DNA of 64,000 nucleotides from positions 45,992-109,991 of the forward strand of contig VMEV01000002.1 in the NCBI GenBank assembly GCA_007375725.1. The letters are read 5' to 3'. Source of the stretch: Parcubacteria group bacterium Greene0416_36. Lineage in GTDB: Bacteria > Patescibacteriota > Patescibacteriia > VMEV01. The position numbers were made by a program, and so were the translations under genes. Every line of letters begins with the position of its first letter. Position 1 is the first letter of the stretch. Shown in pieces: positions 8,427 to 61,966 of this stretch. The notes beneath the pieces were generated by a model. It had not been told where the DNA came from and searched no databases. It worked only from the letters and a program-made list of their open reading frames with translations.

Positions 8427-8533
8427 CTGAGTCACCTGCACTTTGCGGATGTCCTTTATTTGTAGAGACGCGCCATGGCGCGTCTCTACAAATAAAGGAC
8501 AAAATTCCGTAGCTTCCTAGGTGCAGGTGATTC
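8427..8533. mobile_element. 107 bp MITE-like element with 15 bp terminal inverted repeats and REP core GTAGAGACGCGCCATGGCGCGTCTCTAC, flanked by 11 bp direct repeat AGTTGTATTGG
   Basis: TIRs CTGAGTCACCTGCAC / GTGCAGGTGATTCAG; identical 11-mer at 8416-8426 and 8534-8544 (target-site-duplication-like). Confidence 0.6.
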
Positions 8534-9639: not shown

Positions 9640-9660
9640 TTTGATGAAAAAAACTATAAA

Positions 9661-9707
9661 AAAGTGTAAGGGGTCCGACGTTACGTCGGACCCCTTACAC
9701 TTTTTTT
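9661..9707. terminator. bidirectional intrinsic terminator hairpin (A-run / GTAAGGGGTCCGACG..CGTCGGACCCCTTAC / T-run)
   Basis: 20 bp stem, A-tract upstream and T-tract downstream, between convergent genes. Confidence 0.7.
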
Positions 9708-19230: not shown

Positions 19231-19296
19231 GTTGTATGGTTTTTATTGGAAAATGGCTAGAGGAAGCTGATTATTTTTTTTATATCCGTGGCATTT

Positions 19297-19325
19297 GTAG
19301 GGACGTTGCATTGCAACGTCCCTAC
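19297..19325. repeat. REP-like hairpin GTAGGGACGTTGCATTGCAACGTCCCTAC (extended stem 19290-19332)
   Basis: perfect palindrome after kinase gene; near-identical copy at 59959-59986. Confidence 0.55.
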
Positions 19326-19376
19326 AAATGCCACTAATTTGTGCTTATCTACACCTTATCCACATTGTGAATTACT

Positions 19377-28261: not shown

Positions 28262-28272
28262 TTAATTTCTTG

Positions 28273-28300
28273 GTAAGGGCGTATTGCAATACGCCCTTAC
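28273..28300. repeat. REP hairpin GTAAGGGCGTATTGCAATACGCCCTTAC (family A), between SBP gene stop and tRNA-Leu
   Basis: identical 28-mer also inside and just after the RAYT gene (41268, 41569). Confidence 0.6.
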
Positions 28301-28307
28301 CAAGAAA

Positions 28308-30200
28308 TTATTTCCAAACTCGTTTTGTTTCAATATACCACTCACTGAGATTATTAAACCGGTCGCTGGGTTTGACGATATGATCGATATCGAAATTCTT
28401 GATGTCGTTCGACAAAATGTAGTTGTAGGTGGGGCTGTAAAGAAACAGCGCGGGAATTTCCCCCGATAGAATCTCTAGAAACTGTTTATATAATACTTCT
28501 CTCTGTGTCAAATCTTGATTTTGACGGGCATCGATGATAAGTTTATCGGCATTTTTGTCGGCAAAAGAGGTGAGGTTAAGTCCGGGGTCCTTGGCTTGAG
28601 AAGAATGCCAAAAAGCATAAGGATCGGGATCCAATCCGATATTTTGACCGTAGAGGAGGGCCTCATACTGCCGTTTTTTGATGATTTCTTTTTGTATTTT
28701 TGGGGCGTCAAATAATTTGAGCTCTACCTGCGCTCCAATTTTTTCCCAATAGTCTCGGATCAGTTCTGCTGCTTTTTTGTTTTCCGGATGATCTACCGTT
28801 GTAAGAGAGATGGAAAGAATATGGCCGTCTTTTTCACGGAAAAACTCTTGAGATATGGAGGGAGTTGCTGAATTTTCTAGAAAGGGTTCGAGTTCCTGAT
28901 CGGGTATGTTTTTGGGGTCTTTATCTGACAGTGCGGCGGGGAGGGTTTTATCTTTTTCCGAATCTTTTTTTGCGGCGAAGTTTTTTTCCATCCGGGTTCG
29001 GAGCTGTTTTATCGCTTGTTTTTTTTGCCTGTCTTTATACTCCTGCTGTGATATTTTCTGATATCCCGCCTCTTCGAGTAATTGATTGGCTTTTTGGGGA
29101 TCATAGGAGTCAGAGGGGGTTTGGGGGCCAAGAGATAAGAGGGGGTTATCAATCATTTTTCCTTGTTCTTCCAGCGCATAGTCAATGATTTTTTGTTTAG
29201 AAATCGCAAGTGACAGGGCCTGCCGGACGGTTTTGTTCTGGAGAATATTATTTTGATCTTGGTTGAAAAAAATGGCGGTATATTGAGGGAATGAGAGGGG
29301 GTGGGTAATCAAATGTTGGTTGCCCCTGATTGAGTCTTGTTCTTTTTGAGGCAAGAAATTGATGCCGTCGATTGTGCCATTTTGTATAGCGAGAGTGAGG
29401 TCGGTGGTATTTGCGAAAAAACGGAATTCAATTTTCTCTAGATAGGGTCTCTCTCCGTAAAAATTATCATTTCGGACTAGCGTATAAGATAAAATGGTTC
29501 CTTTCTTGTCTTTTTCTAGGGAATCAAACTTCCAAGGTCCGGAACCGATAGGTTTGCGATTATATTCCACGAGTTTCCAGTTTACAGCTGGGATTTCAGC
29601 CCAAATATGTTTGGGCAAAATCCCGAAAGTCAGGAGAGTGGGAAAAGGGGCGAAGGGCTTTTTGAGGGAAAATTTGAGCGTGTGGGGATCGATTTTTTGA
29701 TATTCTACTCCCCTGAGGCTTAGAAATAAAGGGCTTTGATAGGCCGGATCTAAAATGGCGTCAAGAGTAGCCACGACATCATCGGCATTAAATTTAGCCC
29801 CATCATGCCAATAGACATCTTGGCGCAGAGTGAGGGTGTAGATCAGGGAATCACTGGATATCTCGTAGTCGAGAGCCAGATCGGGTACGAGTTCTTGTTC
29901 TTTATTATATTTGAGCAATCCTGAATACACGAGGGAAGAGATATCATTGTCGATATCGCTGGTTTGAGAGAAGAGCGGATTCAAATAGAGCGGCGTGCCG
30001 ATGCTTCCTTCCGTATATTTGCCTCCCGATTGGGCGACTAGTTGTGTCCGGTTTAATATAAAAGAGGCTCCGATATAGGCGAAGCTCAACACAATAATAG
30101 AGAGCAGTATTTTTAACAGCAGATTTTCTCGGCGTGATAGAATTTTGGGCGTGCTGCGAATCTGTTTCCAAGTGGGAATTTTTTTTCTTTCCAAAAGCAT
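28308..30200 (-). CDS. extracellular solute-binding protein family 5 (OppA/DppA-like) with N-terminal membrane anchor
   Basis: SBP_bac_5-like core (YTLTLRQDVYWHDGAKFNADDVVATL); ORF-track N-terminus overlaps secG, true start likely Met ~30200. Confidence 0.6.
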   Translation of the reverse strand: MLLERKKIPTWKQIRSTPKILSRRENLLLKILLSIIVLSFAYIGASFILNRTQLVAQSGGKYTEGSIGTPLYLNPLFSQTSDIDNDISSLVYSGLLKYNKEQELVPDLALDYEISSDSLIYTLTLRQDVYWHDGAKFNADDVVATLDAILDPAYQSPLFLSLRGVEYQKIDPHTLKFSLKKPFAPFPTLLTFGILPKHIWAEIPAVNWKLVEYNRKPIGSGPWKFDSLEKDKKGTILSYTLVRNDNFYGERPYLEKIEFRFFANTTDLTLAIQNGTIDGINFLPQKEQDSIRGNQHLITHPLSFPQYTAIFFNQDQNNILQNKTVRQALSLAISKQKIIDYALEEQGKMIDNPLLSLGPQTPSDSYDPQKANQLLEEAGYQKISQQEYKDRQKKQAIKQLRTRMEKNFAAKKDSEKDKTLPAALSDKDPKNIPDQELEPFLENSATPSISQEFFREKDGHILSISLTTVDHPENKKAAELIRDYWEKIGAQVELKLFDAPKIQKEIIKKRQYEALLYGQNIGLDPDPYAFWHSSQAKDPGLNLTSFADKNADKLIIDARQNQDLTQREVLYKQFLEILSGEIPALFLYSPTYNYILSNDIKNFDIDHIVKPSDRFNNLSEWYIETKRVWK

Positions 30201-36843: not shown

Positions 36844-36871
36844 AATTTGAGAGATTTTTTATAAAAAAATA

Positions 36872-36899
36872 GTAGAGACGCGCCATGGCGCGTCTCTAC
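36872..36899. terminator. REP hairpin GTAGAGACGCGCCATGGCGCGTCTCTAC flanked by A-run/T-run (bidirectional terminator, family C)
   Basis: perfect 28 bp palindrome between convergent small ORF and glyA; same core as 8462-8489. Confidence 0.6.
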
Positions 36900-36917
36900 T
36901 ATTTTTTTATGATCTCT

Positions 36918-38165: not shown

Positions 38166-38297
38166 AGGGAATTAAAAATTAAGAATGAAGAATGAAGAAT
38201 GAAGAATTTTCTGCAACCTTATCAAATATAAAGGGGTTTGGACAGTTGCAAAATGATTTATTTTGTGTATAATTATCTAATTATTATCAGACAATTT

Positions 38298-38594
38298 ATG
38301 AATTTAAATTTTGTATCCACCACTCAGCTACAAAAAAATCCCAGTAAAGTATTGAATGAAGAAGGTATTCAAATTGTGCTTAAAAATAATCAGATGCAGG
38401 GGGTTATTTTTTCGGCTAAAATTGCCAAGCGTTTTTTGGATTTAGCCACATTGAGGCAGATTCAGGAGGAGCTTTATGAAATGTCGGATCCCGAGACGGT
38501 CAAAGTGATTGAAGAAGGCCGATCGGGAAAGAAAAAAGGCGTGGATTTTTTTGATTTCATGAAACAATATGGCGTACAAGGTAGAAAACGTTAG
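38298..38594 (+). CDS. small protein, possible Phd/YefM-like antitoxin fold
   Basis: N-term FVSTTQLQKNPSKVL...IQIVLKNNQMQGVIFS pattern; start at internal Met of ORF 38238. Confidence 0.3.
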   Translation: MNLNFVSTTQLQKNPSKVLNEEGIQIVLKNNQMQGVIFSAKIAKRFLDLATLRQIQEELYEMSDPETVKVIEEGRSGKKKGVDFFDFMKQYGVQGRKR

Positions 38595-38643
38595 TTTATC
38601 AATTGTGATCATGGTTTGAATTTAAAAATGTTATCTTAATACT

Positions 38644-38994
38644 ATGCCCCTTTATTTGATAGAAGAACCGATTTCTATTGAAAGGCTGAAAGAAATTGCC
38701 AGTGAACGTTTTGGTGATATGGTTAAAGTTGTTGTAGATATTGAAAAAGGGGCTATGGTTGTAGGGGGAGAATTGCATGCTGATGAAGAATCAGATCTGA
38801 TCGGAAGAGGATCGATGCAGGAAAATTTATGGGGGATCAATTTATATCCCGACATTACCGGAGAGAATTGGCTAGAATTTGATTCAATGATCAATGTTCG
38901 TCCTAGGCAAAATAATCGTACTCGAGGGGTTGAGGACCCTGATATTAGAGAGAAAATCAATCGCCTTGTTGATCAATTGGTGAAGCGATCATGA
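38644..38994 (+). CDS. hypothetical protein
   Basis: 116 aa; overlaps next ORF by 4 nt (ATGA). Confidence 0.35.
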   Translation: MPLYLIEEPISIERLKEIASERFGDMVKVVVDIEKGAMVVGGELHADEESDLIGRGSMQENLWGINLYPDITGENWLEFDSMINVRPRQNNRTRGVEDPDIREKINRLVDQLVKRS

Positions 38995-39332
38995 TTTTAG
39001 ATTTTATGAACACTATGCACTCTGTAGAAAATTGGCATGTATTATCTCTGTCTTCTCAGATGGGCAATATTGGCAGTGAAATTTCAAGGGCAAAAAATTG
39101 GAGAGGCCGAAATGATATTCAATATATAAAAGCATTGGAACGAGCTTTTGAATTGTTGGATTTGACATTATCGGATCCCGCACGAAATCATCAGCTTCGT
39201 GAAATTTCCAGAGTGCGCGAAGTTCTCGCTGATATTTATCTCGGATCGTTTGAATATAAAACCACTCTCGAAGATTTAGACCGCTATTTCATGCCCTTTG
39301 CGATTGTCGCAAGAAAAGAAATGAATCGATAA
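38991..39332 (+). CDS. hypothetical protein
   Basis: 113 aa, translationally coupled to 38644 gene. Confidence 0.35.
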   Translation: MILDFMNTMHSVENWHVLSLSSQMGNIGSEISRAKNWRGRNDIQYIKALERAFELLDLTLSDPARNHQLREISRVREVLADIYLGSFEYKTTLEDLDRYFMPFAIVARKEMNR

Positions 39333-39579: not shown

Positions 39580-39658
39580 TTTTTTGACACGGTAAGTTTG
39601 GATCGGGGATCTCAGGTCCCTAAAATTTTTTTATCGGTATTCACACGACCGCAAAAAA

Positions 39659-39688
39659 GGTAAGGGCTCAAAATTTTGAGCCCTTACC
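39659..39688. repeat. hairpin GGTAAGGGCTCAAAATTTTGAGCCCTTACC + T-run; core of ~100 bp repeat unit E (copy 1, ~39632-39733)
   Basis: whole ~100 bp unit duplicated at ~40274-40378. Confidence 0.55.
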
Positions 39689-39776
39689 TTTTTTAGATGG
39701 GGGGAATAATTTGAGAATAAAAAAATCAGAACCTTGGATGGTCTGAAATTTTGTGAGGTGGAGTAGTCCTCTGGTT

Positions 39777-40067
39777 TTATTTTTCTTTCTTTAGATACTC
39801 CGTCAAAGCTTCAACCATGATTGTTGATATGGCTTCTTCTTTGTTCTCTGGATTCTTAGTATAAGCGATCTGTACCAATTTGTTGTAGAGAGGAGAGGTA
39901 CATCCTCCTTGGAAAAAAGTATCGAGATGTATTTTTATACCGTTTCTTATTAGTGTACTTATCTGCACTTCTGTTATGGTTGATGTTTTTCGGATTTTCT
40001 CGAAGAATTCTTTTTCGAAAGCAATACTATGAATCACTTTCTTTTCTTTTTTTGTTTTTGCTAGCAT
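39777..40067 (-). CDS. hypothetical small protein
   Basis: 96 aa ORF between repeat E copy 1 and 56-bp motif copy A. Confidence 0.3.
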   Translation of the reverse strand: MLAKTKKEKKVIHSIAFEKEFFEKIRKTSTITEVQISTLIRNGIKIHLDTFFQGGCTSPLYNKLVQIAYTKNPENKEEAISTIMVEALTEYLKKEK

Positions 40068-40132
40068 TTTATACCCTTTTTATTTGTGGATTTAGGATCT
40101 GAACACTGAAATCTTTTTACTATAGATCTTAT

Positions 40133-40190
40133 TTTTTGTCAATATACCCATCCTCCTCATTATTTTGTAAGATAGGCGGGAATTGGGGAA
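40133..40190. repeat. ~56 bp conserved motif TTTGTCAATATACCCATCCTCCTCATTATTTTGTAAGATAGGCGGGAATTGGGGAA (copy A)
   Basis: repeated at 40866-40922 (abutting RAYT start) and 45318-45377. Confidence 0.5.
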
Positions 40191-40303
40191 GGTAGAGATA
40201 AAATACGAATTAATGATTAGGTCTTTAGGCCCGCTTTAGGGCGAAGTGGGAGGATCTCATCTACTTGGGGTCTCTTATCGATACTCACTTGACGGCTAAA
40301 AAA

Positions 40304-40333
40304 GGTAAGGGCTCAAAATTTTGAGCCCTTACC
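40304..40333. repeat. repeat unit E copy 2 hairpin GGTAAGGGCTCAAAATTTTGAGCCCTTACC
   Basis: identical to 39659-39688 including flanks. Confidence 0.55.
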
Positions 40334-40433
40334 TTTTTTAGCGGGGGGGGGAATAATTTTGGAATAAAAAAATCAGAATTTTCATTCTGAGTTTTTTGCG
40401 CCTAGATTTGCGGACGCGATTTTTATATTGCGA

Positions 40434-40817
40434 TTAGCATTTTTTCAACTCATGACACTTGGTGTCAGTTTCATGGTCTACTAAAACATTCATTTCTTTG
40501 GAAAGTTCATCCTTTAAAAATTGAGCTTTTAATTTTTCAAGACTTATGTTCTCTGGGCAATAATCGTTGCATTTACTTATTGCCGTCAGTATTATTTCGG
40601 GCAGTTTGTGCTTGATGTAGGGGCCAAATAATGAACCCTCATCTTCCGTCACCAACATATTCAAAATATGTTGGATTGTACTTTTTAACATTTTTACCAC
40701 CCTAAAATTGCGGTCTATTGGACATCTTATGTCAGGCCCAGATTTTTGAAGAAAGTGGATGGTCTGGACCATTAGATTCACGCAGAACTCTATTGTATTC
40801 ATGGTTTGTCCTTTCAA
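40434..40817 (-). CDS. hypothetical Cys-containing small protein
   Basis: 127 aa ORF between repeat E copy 2 and 56-bp motif copy B. Confidence 0.3.
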   Translation of the reverse strand: MKGQTMNTIEFCVNLMVQTIHFLQKSGPDIRCPIDRNFRVVKMLKSTIQHILNMLVTEDEGSLFGPYIKHKLPEIILTAISKCNDYCPENISLEKLKAQFLKDELSKEMNVLVDHETDTKCHELKKC

Positions 40818-40865
40818 AAAGAAGTTTTTGTAAAAAGCTGTTATCTTTTTAGCATTCTTTTTTTA

Positions 40866-40922
40866 TTTTGTCAATATACCCATCCTCCCCATTATTTTGT
40901 AAGATAGGCGGGAATTGGGGAA
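40866..40922. repeat. 56-bp motif copy B, immediately 5' of RAYT start codon
   Basis: ends GGGAATTGGGGAAAT-ATG; ORF-track N-terminus (MSIYPSS...) is read-through of this motif. Confidence 0.5.
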
Positions 40923-40924
40923 AT

Positions 40925-41527
40925 ATGTCGGTCACATATGAATGGGAGCGGAAATCGATGAGACTTGTGGGCTATGATTATTCGAAGCCGGGGTTTTATT
41001 TTGTGACGGTTTTGACGAAGGATAGGGAATGTTTGTTTGGGGAGATTGAAGAGGGGGAGATGAGGTTGGGTGAGATGGGAAAGATTGCGGAGGGAGAGTG
41101 TTTGAAAACTTCGGAGATTCGAAAAAACATCAAGGTTGATTGTTTTGTGGTGATGCCAAATCATGTTCATGGGATTATTGAGATTATGGATGTTGACGGC
41201 GATCCGGGTAAGGACAATGTACTCGAGTCTCGACCTGGTAAGGGCACGGTGCTTGAGAGTCTACCCGGTAAGGGCGTATTGCAATACGCCCTTACCTCGA
41301 GTCGGGTGGGGTTTCGTTCTCCGTCCAATAATCTTGGTGCCGTGATCAGGGGATATAAATCATCAGTCACCAAACAAATCAATGACCTTCGTAATACCCC
41401 GTGCAATCCTGTCTGGCACCGCAACTACCACGATCACATCATCCGATCACTGGAGGAACTTGAAAATATCCGAGAGTATATAAAAAATAATCCACGAAGA
41501 TGGAAAGACGATCCGGAGAATGTTTAA
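40925..41527 (+). CDS. REP-associated tyrosine transposase (RAYT; IS200-like HuH transposase) carrying in-frame REP/tandem-repeat insert
   Basis: HuH motif MPNHVHGII, C-terminal WHRNYHDHIIRS...IREYIKNNPRRW; standalone, no IS ends recognised. Confidence 0.7.
   Translation: MSVTYEWERKSMRLVGYDYSKPGFYFVTVLTKDRECLFGEIEEGEMRLGEMGKIAEGECLKTSEIRKNIKVDCFVVMPNHVHGIIEIMDVDGDPGKDNVLESRPGKGTVLESLPGKGVLQYALTSSRVGFRSPSNNLGAVIRGYKSSVTKQINDLRNTPCNPVWHRNYHDHIIRSLEELENIREYIKNNPRRWKDDPENV
41204..41306 (+). repeat. three tandem ~30 bp repeats (CCnGGTAAGGnCAnnGTnCTnGAGnCTCnA), third containing REP GTAAGGGCGTATTGCAATACGCCCTTAC (41268-41295), in-frame inside RAYT
   Basis: encodes PGKDNVLESR / PGKGTVLESL / PGKGVLQYAL in the loop where RAYTs normally have a Gly-rich segment. 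Confidence 0.65.
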
Positions 41528-41568
41528 ATATATGAATTTTTTAAATCTGATTCATAGCAAGGACGCAA

Positions 41569-41596
41569 GTAAGGGCGTATTGCAATACGCCCTTAC
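41569..41596. repeat. REP GTAAGGGCGTATTGCAATACGCCCTTAC 42 nt downstream of RAYT stop
   Basis: third identical copy of family A. Confidence 0.6.
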
Positions 41597-41788
41597 GGGT
41601 TGGAGCAATGGCTCCGTGGCAAATATTATCCCCGCGGGGGATATACTTTTTGATTTATAAATTATTATCATAGCAATTTTTTGACAGATTAATTTTAAAA
41701 TTACACGAGATTGCCGCGCTCCCCTCGGAAATGAATCATGACTCTGTCATGATTCTAGGCTCGGGATCGCTCGCAATGACACTATCAT

Positions 41789-44773
41789 ATGCAAGAACAA
41801 AAAAAATCCTTCCTCTCTGAAATAGAGGAAAAAATACTCGAATTTTGGGACAAAGACAAAACATTTGAGAAGTCGGTAAACGAGCGGCCGGAATCAAAGC
41901 CTTATGTCTTTTATGACGGGCCTCCTTTTGCGACCGGTCTCCCTCATTATGGACATATCTTGGCGTCGACTTCCAAGGATATGGTTCCGCGATACTGGAC
42001 CATGAAAGGGTATCGGGTGGAGCGGCGGTGGGGATGGGATTGTCATGGCCTTCCGATCGAAAACATCGCTGAAAAGGAACTCAAAATCAGTGGCAAAAAA
42101 GCGATTGAGGAGATGGGCATTGATAAATTCAACGAGTTTTGCCGATCGAAAGTGCTCACTTATGCCAAGGATTGGGGGACAATAGTGCGTCGCATCGGCC
42201 GATGGGTGGATTTTGATAATGCCTACATGACCATGGATAATTCGTATATCGAGTCCGTGTGGTGGGCATTCAAGCAAATGCATGGAAAGGGCCTGATATA
42301 CGAAGGCAAAAAAGTGCTTCTCTACTGCTCCCGCTGTGAGACGCCGATTTCGAATTTCGAGATAGCGATGGATAATAGTTATAAGGATGTGGAGGAGGAA
42401 ACCGCTATCGCGAAATTAAAAATTAAAAATGAAAAATTAAAAATTGGAACAACAAATAATACTTACTTTTTGGCGTGGACGACGACACCGTGGACCCTAG
42501 TAGGGAATTTGGCATTGGCGATCAATAAAGATTTTGAATATGTGGTGGTGGCGAAAGATGGGATGAATGAGCAAATGATCTTGGCTAAGTCGGCATTTGA
42601 AAAACAGCAGGATTTGTATGCGGGATATTCGGTGGTGGAAACAGTTCGGGGGGAGAAACTATTAGATTTGGAATATGAACCGCTCTACGAGATGAATGCG
42701 GGCGGCAAGCGGGGATTTTATGCTTTGGATGGGGGAGCGGATGTGACTGCGGATGATGGAACGGGTATGGTCCATATGGCCATGTATGGTGAGTTCGACT
42801 ATGAAATGGCCAAGAAATATGATTTGCCTCAGATCATTCATTTGGATGAAATGGGAAAACTCAAAGAAGGGCCGGAAGCTTGGAAAGGCGTTTATTTCAA
42901 GAAATTGAATGGTTTGGTTTTGGAAGATCTCAAAAGTCGGGGACTTTTATTTGCTTCTCCGAAACATAGTCATTCGTATCCATTCTGTTATCGCTGTGCC
43001 ACGCCACTCTATTACGCGCCGATCCCGGCTTGGTTTATCGCCGTATCTAAAATCAAATCTCGTCTCCTCGAACTAAACGCGACGGGAAAAAATACCAATG
43101 GCAAAGATGTGGGCATCAATTGGGTACCGGATCATCTCAAGGAGGGCCGGTTCAAGAACAGTCTCGAAGGCGCGCCGGACTGGAATATTTCCAGAAACCG
43201 TTATTGGGCCTCTTCGATTCCCGTGTGGAAATGCGTGGATTGCGGAAAGCAGGAAGTTTTCGGATCCGTACAAGAATTGCGAGATAAGGCGACCAATCTC
43301 AAAGAATTAGGCTTGGAAAAAGCCGAGATCGATCTGCACAAACATGTTGTGGATAAAATATTGGTGGAGTGTGAGTGTGGTAAATCGATGCATCGTATTC
43401 CCGAAGTCATTGACTGCTGGGTGGAAAGCGCGTCCATGCCTTTCGCGGCGGAACATTACCCCTTCGAAAATGCTAAAAAATTCGAGCATTCATTTCCAGC
43501 TCAATTTGTCAGCGAATATATCGCTCAAACCCGGGCGTGGTTCTACGTTTGTCTTGTTCTCTCTGGAGCAGTATTCGACAAGATTCCTTTTGAAAATGTG
43601 GTGGTGACTGGTACGATCATGGCCGAGGATGGCACGAAAATGTCCAAATCTAAAGGGAATTATCCGGATCCCATGGGACTGATCAACCGTTTTGGTGTCG
43701 ATGCTCTGCGTCTCTATCTCATGTCTTCTCCTGTAATGAAAGGCGAATCCCTCAATTTTTCTGAGAAAGGCGTGGATGAAATGGCCAAGAAAGTCGTGAT
43801 GCTCTTGTATAATGTGGTGAATTTTTATGAGTTGTTTGTAACAAATCCCCCTCGGTCCCCCTTTGACAAGGGGGAAGAGGGTGTTGTTTCCCCCTCCCTT
43901 GTCAAAGGGAGGGTTGGGGTGGGATTTGTTGCCTCTACCCCATCGACAGGAAACATTCTCGACCGCTGGATCCTGTCCAAATTGAATACTCTGATTACTG
44001 AGATGACCGAAAAATATGATCGCTATGAACTAGTCGATGGCACGCGGCTGCTTCCTTCCTTCATCGATGAACTCTCCACCTGGTATGTCCGCCGTTCGCG
44101 GGACCGGTTTAAGGGGGAGGATGAGGCGGATCGACAAAGCGCTTTAGCGACTCTGGGTTTTGTTTTGTCGGAGCTTTCTAAACTGCTGGCTCCCGTTGCG
44201 CCCTTTACGGCTGAACAGGTTTGGATGCGGCTGGGTAATAAAACCTCGGTGCATTTGGAACCGTGGCCGGTCGCCAGTAAGGGCGTGGATGAAAAAGTGG
44301 TGGAAGAGATGGATTTTGTCCGAAAAATTGTCGAAGATGTTCATCGCCAGCGCGCAGAAGCGGGCGTGAAGGTGCGACAACCTCTTGGAAAAGTAGAATT
44401 AACTCTTCCTTTCGGACTTTCTCGAGATTTGGTTGATATTTTGAAAGATGAAGTGAATGTACTCGAAGTGATTCAGAAAAAAGGGGAGTGGAAAGTAGCG
44501 CTTGATACTCAACTTACTGAAGAACTTAAAAAAGCTGGAATGTTTCGAGAACTGGTCCGCCAGATCAACGGCATGCGAAAGGAATCAGGACTCTCGATCG
44601 GTGATTTTGTCACCATGGAATACCTCTCTGATCCTCAATTATCTGCTTGGATTGAATCTAATCGCGAGATATTAGCCAAACAGGTTTTGGCTTCGAAGAT
44701 TGTGGCGGGAGGGGATGGAGGGAAGGAACTGGATTTGGATGGGAAGAAGTTGGTGTGGAAAATTGTGAAATAA
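41789..44773 (+). CDS. ileS: isoleucyl-tRNA synthetase carrying in-frame MITE-derived 31-aa insert
   Basis: HIGH variant PHYGHIL, KMSKS, editing and anticodon-binding regions; insert at 43841-43932. Confidence 0.9.
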   Translation: MQEQKKSFLSEIEEKILEFWDKDKTFEKSVNERPESKPYVFYDGPPFATGLPHYGHILASTSKDMVPRYWTMKGYRVERRWGWDCHGLPIENIAEKELKISGKKAIEEMGIDKFNEFCRSKVLTYAKDWGTIVRRIGRWVDFDNAYMTMDNSYIESVWWAFKQMHGKGLIYEGKKVLLYCSRCETPISNFEIAMDNSYKDVEEETAIAKLKIKNEKLKIGTTNNTYFLAWTTTPWTLVGNLALAINKDFEYVVVAKDGMNEQMILAKSAFEKQQDLYAGYSVVETVRGEKLLDLEYEPLYEMNAGGKRGFYALDGGADVTADDGTGMVHMAMYGEFDYEMAKKYDLPQIIHLDEMGKLKEGPEAWKGVYFKKLNGLVLEDLKSRGLLFASPKHSHSYPFCYRCATPLYYAPIPAWFIAVSKIKSRLLELNATGKNTNGKDVGINWVPDHLKEGRFKNSLEGAPDWNISRNRYWASSIPVWKCVDCGKQEVFGSVQELRDKATNLKELGLEKAEIDLHKHVVDKILVECECGKSMHRIPEVIDCWVESASMPFAAEHYPFENAKKFEHSFPAQFVSEYIAQTRAWFYVCLVLSGAVFDKIPFENVVVTGTIMAEDGTKMSKSKGNYPDPMGLINRFGVDALRLYLMSSPVMKGESLNFSEKGVDEMAKKVVMLLYNVVNFYELFVTNPPRSPFDKGEEGVVSPSLVKGRVGVGFVASTPSTGNILDRWILSKLNTLITEMTEKYDRYELVDGTRLLPSFIDELSTWYVRRSRDRFKGEDEADRQSALATLGFVLSELSKLLAPVAPFTAEQVWMRLGNKTSVHLEPWPVASKGVDEKVVEEMDFVRKIVEDVHRQRAEAGVKVRQPLGKVELTLPFGLSRDLVDILKDEVNVLEVIQKKGEWKVALDTQLTEELKKAGMFRELVRQINGMRKESGLSIGDFVTMEYLSDPQLSAWIESNREILAKQVLASKIVAGGDGGKELDLDGKKLVWKIVK
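43841..43932. repeat. MITE-like element copy 4, inserted in-frame within ileS coding sequence
   Basis: ACAAATCCCC..CCCTTTGACAAGGGGG..CCCTCCCTTGTCAAAGGGAGGG..GGGATTTGTTGC; 93 bp = 31 codons, translated as ...PFDKGEEGVVSPSLVKGRVG... Confidence 0.75.
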
Positions 44774-44836: not shown

Positions 44837-45317
44837 AGGAGGCCAAGAAAAGAAGGTTGACAGTAGGCACGTTTTTGTCTATCATAAAGATAGATTACCC
44901 CGCACGGTAAAGAGAATTCCTCCTTACGTCCGGCTTGTATATGTACGGGGTTCTATCTTTTCATTGCTTTAAAATGGCCTTACCGGGCCTTTTTAGTTAT
45001 GATCAACATCATTAAGAAAATTAATGAGAGAATCAAAACTATAGAGTCCATAATTCATCACCTCCTTTCCTGGGAATTTTGAACGGACGAGTCTTTTTAC
45101 ACAAGCCCATTATCTTAATGGCTTTTTTTATATTTGGGTAGATCGTTTTATCCCCATAAACCACAGCCACCTTGTCGGACAGGGTGTTTTTTAAAATTAA
45201 AAAAACCAGAGATTTCTGGTTAATTTTTCTGCAATATTAAATTTAGATTTTTATTTTTTCTGATTTTTTAACACCCCCCCCGCTAATAAACTGAAACTAT
45301 AATCTTTTTTATATTTT

Positions 45318-45377
45318 TTGTCAATATACCCCTTCCCCTCATTCTTTTGTAAGATGAACAAGGAATTTGGAGTGGGG
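45318..45377. repeat. 56-bp motif copy C (TTTGTCAATATACCCCTTCCCCTCATTCTTTTGTAAGATG...) ~150 nt upstream of ruvA
   Basis: third copy, 3' part diverged. Confidence 0.45.
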
Positions 45378-45520
45378 TTACAATATTGATTGCGTTTAAG
45401 ATGAGATCCCCGATTCTAACTTTAGCGGTACTGCATTGTTTTATTGTTCGGGGATGACGGTTTATACGAGGATGTTGGTCGTCACCTAAATCCTAGATCC
45501 TTAATCCTGAATCCTAATTT

Positions 45521-59931: not shown

Positions 59932-59958
59932 TGATTTTGTTTTAAACGTCGACCATTG

Positions 59959-59986
59959 AGTAGGGACGTTGGATGCAACGTCCCTA
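59959..59986. repeat. REP-like hairpin GTAGGGACGTTGGATGCAACGTCCCTAC (family B copy 2)
   Basis: 28 nt after hydrolase stop; near-identical to 19297-19325. Confidence 0.55.
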
Positions 59987-60136
59987 CTCAATGGTCTGAC
60001 ATTGACTCATCACCCTTTCTTTTATAGACTAAAACAATTATTAAATTTGGATTTTTGAGATTCTGTTGTTTCTAGATCCTGAATCCTTCCGCCAAAGGCG
60101 GATCCGCCTTTGGCGGAAAATCCTGAATCCTAATCT

Positions 60137-61903: not shown

Positions 61904-61920
61904 GACATGTAAGGCAAAAA

Positions 61921-61966
61921 ACTGTAAGGGCTCCGATGTTACATCGGAGCCCTTACAGTTTTTTTA
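61921..61966 (+). terminator. intrinsic terminator ACTGTAAGGGCTCCGATGT-TA-ACATCGGAGCCCTTACAGT + T7
   Basis: 19 bp stem right after aspS; GTAAGGG..CCCTTAC ends like the REP family. Confidence 0.7.

Follow-up and report, generated by a model that had tools for sequence, protein, structure and literature searches.

How do two small, unrelated genes come to lie between the same pair of flanking repeats, beside a transposase-like gene? The question is raised by a 64,000-nucleotide (nt) stretch of the genome of Parcubacteria group bacterium Greene0416_36 (assembly GCA_007375725.1, contig VMEV01000002.1, positions 45,992 to 109,991 of the forward strand), which we call the window and whose own numbering is used below. 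In it, the gene for a tyrosine transposase associated with repetitive extragenic palindromes (REPs), or RAYT, is preceded by two successive units, each made up of a hairpin-forming repeat (E), a small open reading frame (ORF) on the minus strand, and a short motif. The initial annotation had placed the RAYT at the center of this arrangement, as we do, and had read the whole as cassette-style shuffling around a transposase. We favor another answer, to which we give about an even chance: local, homology-driven copying of regulatory blocks near the RAYT, which would have left a mosaic resembling bacterial interspersed mosaic elements (BIMEs) around two unrelated orphan genes.

The flanking repeats extend well beyond the short hairpins that they contain. 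Repeat E had been described as occurring twice, and BLAST aligned 39653-39731 with 40298-40378 at 92.6% identity over 81 nt (E value, 1e-25), a match that further alignment widened to approximately 39626-39733 and 40270-40380. The core of E, A6-GGTAAGGGCTCAAAATTTTGAGCCCTTACC-T6, is a perfect palindrome, and 44 nt of it are 100% identical between the two copies. E measures ~105 nt in all, its shoulders totaling ~60 nt. For E and the motif taken together, shoulders are 65 to 90% identical between copies, relative to 98 to 100% for the cores. The motif, first reported as a duplication of 56 bp, spans 57 nt with a single mismatch (40134-40190 versus 40866-40922; 98.2% identity by BLAST); when its diverged left shoulder is included, the match covers 40106-40190 and 40838-40922 and amounts to 87% over 85 nt. 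A third copy, likewise noticed at the outset, matches at 45312-45355 (90.9% identity over 44 nt) and is diverged outside that core. No motif-type match arose in shuffles of the window (0/100). Across the ~84 kb of this one genome that the analysis covered (the window plus L003 and L004), BLAST detected no further copies of E or the motif and a position-weighted scan detected no degenerate copies of the motif, all three copies of which fall within 5.3 kb.

What these repeats enclose is altogether different. The segments at 39732-40105 and 40379-40837 have no DNA similarity to one another (Smith-Waterman z = -0.02), and neither do the proteins of small ORFs 1 and 2 (Smith-Waterman z = -0.07; no BLASTP alignment), which bears out the earlier description of duplicated flanks with differing genes. 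An old tandem duplication of one unit could produce such a pattern if the interior subsequently diverged or was replaced, with the cores being kept by selection or gene conversion. This scenario fits the order of the units (E, minus-strand ORF, and motif, twice in tandem with similar spacing), the unique junction of only ~54 nt between them, and the graded identity of cores and shoulders; REP-mediated tandem duplication is, moreover, known in enterobacteria. The two copies of E (E1 and E2) lie 645 bp apart as direct repeats. However, neutral shoulders that are still 65 to 90% identical predict detectable similarity between the interiors, for which z is about 0, and 57 nt with one mismatch exceeds the conservation that promoter function needs. 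We regard a duplication of this kind as unlikely.

The structure of E ties it to the neighboring RAYT. In E1 (39626-39733, assigned to neither strand), two shoulders flank a 42-nt perfect palindrome (39653-39694), and the DNA fold z is -5.6. Its palindrome reads A6-G-GTAAGGGC TCAAAATTTTGA GCCCTTAC-C-T6, and its right shoulder reads G6...A7TCAGAA. E2 (40270-40380, also strandless) carries a 48-nt perfect palindrome (40295-40342) followed by G9 and has a DNA fold z of -8.2. Eleven long perfect palindromes occur in the window, with cores that start with GTAG or GTAA and end with CTAC or TTAC; 4 of the 11 have GTAG...CTAC feet, while the E and R types carry the variant GTAA...TTAC, followed by GGG/CCC. 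The GTAAGGGC...GCCCTTAC type is found at 28273, 39660, 40305, 41268, 41569, and 61924, with a GTAAGGGG variant at 9658, and the REP types include E and a GCGTATTGCAATACGC type. E has the same foot and the same three stem-base G-C pairs as the hairpin within the RAYT gene, the one that follows it, and those at 28273 and 61924. According to Quentin et al. (2018, PMC6006769), such "double-foot" REPs with three stem-base G-C pairs are of the type associated with TnpA_REP subclass 2.4. Judged by its sequence, then, the core of E is a REP and a member of the adjacent RAYT's own REP family, whereas the A6/T6 arms and the shoulders of ~60 nt belong to this locus alone. The 28-nt core of E was also found verbatim between pstS and pstC (positions 2918-2945, with different flanks) in L009, an unrelated metagenome contig of higher GC content (Ga0182021_10066093); distant organisms therefore have this REP sequence in common.

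Position and composition further suggest what E might do. Ten of the 11 double-foot palindromes lie at gene 3' ends, the exception being the copy inside the RAYT gene. E combines a stable stem, a T run on each strand, and a location at gene 3' ends, which are the sequence characteristics of an intrinsic bidirectional terminator, and it looks like one. Since the A6/T6 arms sit on the REP stem, E should stop transcription arriving from both directions.

Two further observations concern these hairpins. Most double-foot REPs in the window stay perfect palindromes for 7 to 12 nt beyond their GTAG/CTAC feet (8450-8501, 19288-19334, 28263-28310, 36861-36910, and 59951-59996; also 9658-9706 and 61916-61964), and their outer arms vary by site, e.g., TGTCCTTTATTT...AAATAAAGGACA and GACCATTGA...TCAATGGTC; insertion into the apex of an existing hairpin, template-switch "correction," and separate subfamilies are all possible origins of this extension. 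Homopolymer tracts adjoin the E hairpins (G6 at 39698-39703 and G9 at 40343-40351) and motif copy 3 (C8 at 45273-45280), and these tracts may differ in length by slippage.

The gene next to the two units encodes a 200-amino-acid (aa) TnpA_REP-type HUH/Y1 enzyme (40925-41527, plus strand), as indicated by homologue alignment and profile search. It has 6,377 homologues, many of them named RayT; the nearest come from Bacteroidota and other scattered phyla, and the best match after the protein itself, from Bacteroidota, is 54% identical. The HVH motif (H80 and H82) and Y168 are invariant in an alignment with 10 RAYT homologues, and the best PDB match of the RAYT profile is E. coli TnpArep (4ER8; E value, 4e-6). 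Scores against curated models fall below their cutoffs (NCBIfam NF047646, 65.5 bits against a cutoff of 80, with an E value of 5e-18; Pfam Y1_Tnp, 20.7 against 23) because an in-frame REP insertion splits the match. The deposited annotation begins at Met12 (40958) and yields 189 aa. In the homologue alignment, the conserved N-terminal R9, S11, and R13 favor the upstream ATG at 40925, which brings back R9 and S11; since these two are invariant among homologues, we take 40925 to be the true start.

The inserted REP, GGTAAGGGCGTATTGCAATACGCCCTTACC (41267-41296, no strand; repeat search and alignment), lies between the HUH and Tyr motifs, where it encodes ..GKGVLQYALT.., and is preceded by two degenerate 30-bp tandem copies (41204-41263). 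Three homologue loci from other genomes (L006 to L008) have a hairpin at the same position of the RAYT, and the one in L008 matches the flanking REP of its own genome. An in-frame REP between the HUH and Tyr motifs is published as a hallmark of subclass 2.4 (Quentin et al. 2018, PMC6006769), and this subclass corresponds to RAYT group 4 of Bertels et al. 2017 (PMC5581495). Another REP palindrome (41569-41596, no strand) follows 42 nt past the RAYT stop codon and is the same 28-mer as that at 28273. Upstream, no REP lies within 130 nt; the nearest is E2, 583 nt off and separated from the gene by small ORF 2 and the motif. The RAYT is present once in the 84 kb. With its in-frame REP and double-foot REPs, both of which also occur at the three homologue loci, it has the published traits of a TnpA_REP of the subclass 2.4 type.

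The variable loop of the RAYT (41204-41293) can also be described as three tandem 30-bp units (CCGGGTAAGG...), the last of which is the intact REP. These units resemble REP insertions that came one after another or are decaying, a pattern that PMC6006769 notes for subclass 2.4. Among RAYT homologues, the palindrome GGCGTATTGCAATACGCC is read in two frames (..GVLQYAP.. and ..GAYCNTPL..); it therefore seems to be the DNA or repeated insertion, and not the peptide, that is under selection.

The second duplicated block is the motif. Copies 1 (40106-40190, core 40134-40190; fold z = +1.0) and 2 (40838-40922, core 40866-40922) have minus-strand hexamers aimed at small ORFs 1 and 2, respectively, and copy 3 (45288-45372, core 45312-45355) lies ~150 nt upstream of ruvA; no strand is assigned to any of the three. 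None of the copies has secondary structure (z of +0.5 to +1.0 across the three), and the motif is therefore not a hairpin-type transposon end. It appears instead to be promoter-like on both strands. The plus strand carries TTGTCA-N16-CATTAT, which matches the sigma-70 hexamers at 9 of 12 positions. On the minus strand, each of the three copies has a perfect TTGACA; copies 1 and 2 read TTGACA-N17-TAAAAA, with TGc before the second hexamer in copy 2, and copy 3 reads TTGACA-N17-TATAGT (11/12). A minus-strand transcript would begin where the 85-nt repeat has its left edge (CTG...). Promoter-like sites in the region as a whole are in only slight excess (23, versus 17 ± 4.4 in shuffles). The promoter proposed by the initial annotation, TTGTCA..TGTAAGAT, had to be discarded, as its 26-nt spacer does not fit sigma-70; the hexamer pairs given above are better candidates. 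Because no further copies were found in the 84 kb, even degenerate ones, the motif is not the organism's general promoter consensus.

Motif copy 2 had been said to run into the RAYT start codon, and it does: its 3' end (GGCGGGAATTGGGGAA) coincides with the RAYT 5' untranslated region (5'UTR) and ribosome-binding site (RBS; GGGGAA) and stops at 40922. With the RAYT starting at 40925, the motif reaches 3 nt before the ATG and thus supplies the 5'UTR and RBS. Copy 2 would accordingly be the promoter, 5'UTR, and RBS of the RAYT, and copy 1 would drive only a short transcript to E2. This putative plus-strand transcript (40170-40342, ~170 nt) would open with the copy of the RAYT 5'UTR and end at E2, which dominates its fold (z = -4.9); it matches no Rfam family and contains no real ORF (an 8-codon ORF only). 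The blocks copied at this locus would then be the RAYT's own promoter and 5'UTR, together with a REP serving as a two-way terminator.

The spacer between ileS and ruvA holds a promoter-like site of its own. A strong TTGACA-N17-TATCAT (11/12) occurs within 44857-44998, and the ~100 nt that follow it end in a small hairpin and T run. This stretch could be a small RNA; its fold is unexceptional (z = -1.5), and it has no Rfam match.

If the motif is a promoter on the minus strand, then the small ORFs are its likely targets. Small ORF 1 (39777-40067, minus strand) encodes a 96-aa orphan, with an RBS-like AAGGG 8 nt before its ATG, and is longer than expected from shuffles (P = 0.024). Small ORF 2 (40434-40802, minus strand) encodes a 122-aa orphan that is predicted to be all-helical and has an RBS-like AAAGGA 8 nt before its ATG (P = 0.0005 for length). 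Both had been called as genes, and both are intact and annotated; the earlier end of ORF 2 at 40817 reflects an upstream TTG, whereas the 122-aa frame ends at 40802. The annotated frame is the best scoring of six in both cases, although both codon scores rank under the 5th percentile for long genes in the window (0.007 for ORF 1), and GC content is 33 to 36% versus 45%. Searches among 5.8 billion proteins returned self matches only for both ORFs, and HMMER against 1.84 billion representatives returned, for ORF 2, only itself and P0123, which we rejected as a homologue because 26 identical repeats inflate its summed score. For neither ORF did a family in Pfam, PHROGs, NCBIfam, or PADLOC reach its threshold, the weak matches of ORF 1 to the ribbon-helix-helix (RHH) family RHH_3 (E value, 0.025) and an Arc-like family (E value, 0.04) being below the cutoff. 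Single-sequence AlphaFold models were of low confidence for both, with a pLDDT of 58 for ORF 1, which starts with an N-terminal strand-helix-helix, and 53 for ORF 2; Foldseek searches of these models against the PDB found nothing. The small ORFs are probably real genes that were acquired or evolve fast.

Read along the minus strand, the pieces of each unit line up as follows. The promoter-like hexamers of the motif lie ~35 to 40 nt upstream of each small ORF, and the order would be promoter-like motif, 5'UTR of ~35 nt with an RBS-like sequence, orphan ORF, small hairpin with U7, and E. The small hairpins, both predicted by RNA folding on the minus strand, lie directly 3' of ORF 1 (39720-39752) and ORF 2 (40366-40397, with UCAGAAU/AUUCUGA as its arms) and would be the first terminators of units 1 and 2. 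Their 3' arms, and in unit 1 the U run as well, lie in the conserved E shoulder. Each module would thus form a complete, insulated transcription unit, with E separating the convergent ferredoxin gene and small ORF 1 in one case and the motif 1 plus-strand transcript and small ORF 2 in the other.

Upstream of the ferredoxin gene, GC content is low (28 to 40%) at 38200-39330, a stretch with three ORFs: one of 98 aa that is faintly similar to the YafN antitoxin, one for a DUF5674 protein, and an orphan of 113 aa. This stretch and the two modules make up a low-GC block of ~2.7 kb that is interrupted only by the GC-richer ferredoxin gene.

The surroundings of motif copy 3 contain further reused pieces. 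A further block, "a" (AAGTTTGGATCGGGGATCTCA; 39594-39614, plus strand), overlaps a terminator-like hairpin at 39605-39621 that is followed by a T run after the ferredoxin gene; an inverted copy of it (45402-45422, minus strand; 19/21 identities, z = 9.7) stands beside motif copy 3. The motif ends sharply on its right side. The left boundary of the units is unclean, with similarity fading gradually into block "a." Directly upstream of motif copy 3, an inverted fragment, CTGATTTTTT..C8GCTA (45262-45286, plus strand; z of 2.5 to 2.7), resembles the right shoulder of E, an assignment that is only suggestive, and the ileS-ruvA spacer includes a degenerate REP half at 44971-44995. Given these pieces at motif copy 3 and in the spacer, the same few blocks appear to have been reused, their order and orientation varying, at three sites that lie within 6 kb and bracket the RAYT and ileS. 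On the minus strand, motif copy 3 is followed by a short stretch without an ORF, at the end of which stands a terminator-like hairpin (45204-45221).

The location of copy 3 also bears on whether the motif could be a common operator and promoter through which the RAYT, ruvA, and both small ORFs form one small regulon, perhaps with the RHH-like protein of small ORF 1 as the regulator; selection for coregulation would then maintain the copies. The three copies do lie upstream of these four genes and nowhere else in the 84 kb, the conserved core is promoter sized, and ORF 1 is weakly similar to RHH/Arc repressors. Against this stand the RHH matches, which are under every threshold, the lack of a clear dyad or direct-repeat operator in the motif, the 150 nt between copy 3 and ruvA together with the divergence of that copy outside its 44-nt core, and the duplication of E, which a regulon leaves unexplained. 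We consider a shared regulon to be quite unlikely.

Within ileS itself (41789-44773), an in-frame copy of a second palindromic family, CCCTCCCTTGTCAAAGGGAGGG, was found at 43885-43932. At the same place, the protein has 26 aa (..PPRSPFDKGEEGVVSPSLVKGRVG..) that are missing from a 46%-identical homologue (L002), and other copies of the family lie at 1986, 5430, 46108, and 51633.

Do the units move, as the initial annotation supposed? They could be mobile nonautonomous elements or cassettes, with conserved ends (the E/REP hairpin and a motif with an outward promoter) and variable cargo, which we think very unlikely; the associated proposal, that the RAYT moves or captures them by cutting and rejoining single strands at the REP feet and so acts as an HUH counterpart of an integron array, we rate equally low. 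Several properties of the locus are those expected of cassettes. The flanks are conserved and the cargo is unrelated; the cargo is AT rich, atypical in codon use, and without homologues; a hairpin from the REP family of the RAYT closes each cargo, and the RAYT is transcribed divergently from the array; the motif stops sharply on its right; and, 4.4 kb away, a motif stands alone among rearranged blocks. Cassette exchange would also explain near-identical cores beside unrelated interiors. However, there are only two units, with no dispersed copies in the 84 kb, and the exact motif pattern (24 specified bases) had 0 matches in the genome_contigs collection and 0 in the metagenome_contigs collection, neither of which includes the source genome. 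The left boundary, which grades into block "a," is unclean, and the motif end lacks the hairpin that an HUH/Y1 enzyme would be expected to need. The excerpted published accounts of RAYTs, including PMC6006769, describe single-copy domesticated enzymes linked to the spread of REPs and REPINs and, in those portions, do not mention cargo genes, which also speaks against cassettes.

Other assemblies point in the same direction. The RAYT and both small ORFs are 100% identical to annotated proteins of Parcubacteria bacterium Gr01-1014_18 (GCA_007379055.1, VMHD01000001.1), and gene order and neighbors are identical in all seven contigs on record that bear the RAYT and both small genes (7/7); ENA and Logan reassemblies of the same population exist as well, as detected via a neighboring gene. 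Because the seven contigs give the same gene order, the tandem structure is unlikely to be an assembly artifact. They likewise contain no variants in arrangement or presence/absence, contrary to what mobile units would lead one to expect. No phage or plasmid DNA matched the locus, a tblastn search with 60 RAYT homologues found no RAYT remnants in the modules or the ileS-ruvA spacer, the spacer that follows motif 1 is no remnant of the 5' end of the RAYT, and an Rfam scan of the locus gave only subthreshold hairpin matches. Given that no further copies were found and that the seven contigs share their gene order, cassette shuffling is possible yet unsupported: the layout that suggested it stands, and positive evidence of shuffling was absent from the 84 kb, the sequence collections, and the seven contigs. 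That the E-cargo-motif units are cassettes of a RAYT-served gene capture platform, in which small foreign genes would enter between a REP hairpin, bound by the HUH enzyme in single-stranded form, and a portable two-way promoter, strikes us as extremely improbable. If it were true, the platform would be an HUH-based functional analogue of the integron and would give RAYTs a role in gene acquisition.

Active cassette traffic thus appears less likely than local rearrangement. In the explanation that we favor, repeated homology-driven rearrangement among REP and promoter blocks in the neighborhood of the RAYT would have generated the mosaic of block "a," E, shoulder, and motif. The confinement of the motif to three copies in the 84 kb, the inverted reuse of block "a," and the fixed order in seven contigs all count for a local origin. 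Several points weigh against it. A simple duplication leaves cores of 98 to 100% identity beside unrelated interiors unexplained, and gene conversion, selection on the cores, or replacement of the interiors must be added. The TAAAAA of motif copies 1 and 2 lacks the usual final T and the plus strand matches at only 9 of 12 positions, so the promoter activity of the motif is that of a candidate only; promoters of Patescibacteria are, in addition, poorly characterized. The apparent restriction to one locality may reflect the sampling of ~84 kb from one genome. Finally, no close relative of the genome or of the RAYT was present in the searched collections, and the state before duplication is not visible; a scan of genome_contigs that compared the locus via ileS returned one relative, which at 46% identity was too distant.

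Comparison with known systems sets the locus apart from several that it resembles in part. Like an integron array, it has an enzyme for folded single-stranded hairpins divergent from small, unrelated orphan genes that each end in a palindrome. In contrast to integrons, it has no IntI tyrosine recombinase, none of the genes called in the 10 kb to each side having an integrase domain; E ends in GCTAAAAAAGG...CCTTTTTTAGC, without the attC boxes RYYYAAC/GTTRRRY; and each unit has its own promoter-like block, with two units only and no evidence of exchange. For these reasons (no integrase, no attC boxes, and unit-borne promoter-like blocks), we rejected an integron cassette array. An IS200/IS605 element or a palindrome-associated transposable element (PATE) would share the related Y1 HUH enzyme and the subterminal hairpin at one end of each unit. 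It was discarded since the motif end is unstructured (z of +0.5 to +1.0) and neither multiple identical copies nor a TnpB is present, with the RAYT being single copy and the units having no further copies in the 84 kb. E is not a REPIN either, being a single perfect palindrome whose copies are direct rather than inverted repeats.

Another parallel is the ordinary bidirectional terminator. E consists of an A run, a perfect stem containing G+C, and a T run between convergent genes, and on the minus strand a second small hairpin with U7 precedes it. The difference is that its stem belongs to a dispersed REP family and that an identical core occurs in an unrelated organism; E is therefore not merely a locally evolved terminator. 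BIMEs provide a similar parallel for the mosaic as a whole, in that REP hairpins and short blocks ("a," E, shoulder, and motif) recur in varied order and orientation in intergenic positions at three loci. Enterobacterial BIMEs, however, occur in hundreds of copies and, to our knowledge, do not enclose genes, whereas the blocks described here bracket two ORFs and occur in two or three copies, all within 6 kb.

Also close among known systems is subclass 2.4 (group 4), with which the RAYT shares intact HUH and Tyr motifs, an in-frame REP between them, and nearest homologues in Bacteroidota and other scattered phyla, and the REPs share perfect palindromes, a foot at both ends, three stem-base G-C pairs, low copy number, and location at gene 3' ends. 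The systems differ in their feet (GTAA/TTAC in E and R, relative to the published GT[AG]G, with C[TC]AC at the 3' end), in that the motif rather than a REP abuts the start codon here, E2 lying 583 nt upstream behind a small gene, and in that the host is a candidate phyla radiation (CPR) bacterium, a Parcubacteria metagenome-assembled genome. A literature search pairing RAYT with CPR names returned no occurrence of "RAYT." CPR genomes are small and thought to be repeat poor. RAYTs that contain a REP, REPs of the double-foot kind, and their location at gene 3' ends are already known; the CPR host and the duplicated bookend arrangement are new and rest on a single locus, which at present is a curiosity whose layout is real and odd and whose movement is unsupported. 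Were more units with other cargoes to exist, RAYTs would be tied to gene capture, and the view of these enzymes would change. As it stands, the locus documents a subclass 2.4-type RAYT/REP system in Parcubacteria, in which the REPs look co-opted as two-way terminators, and offers a concrete example of regulatory bookends, a promoter block and a REP terminator, copied independently of the genes that they enclose.

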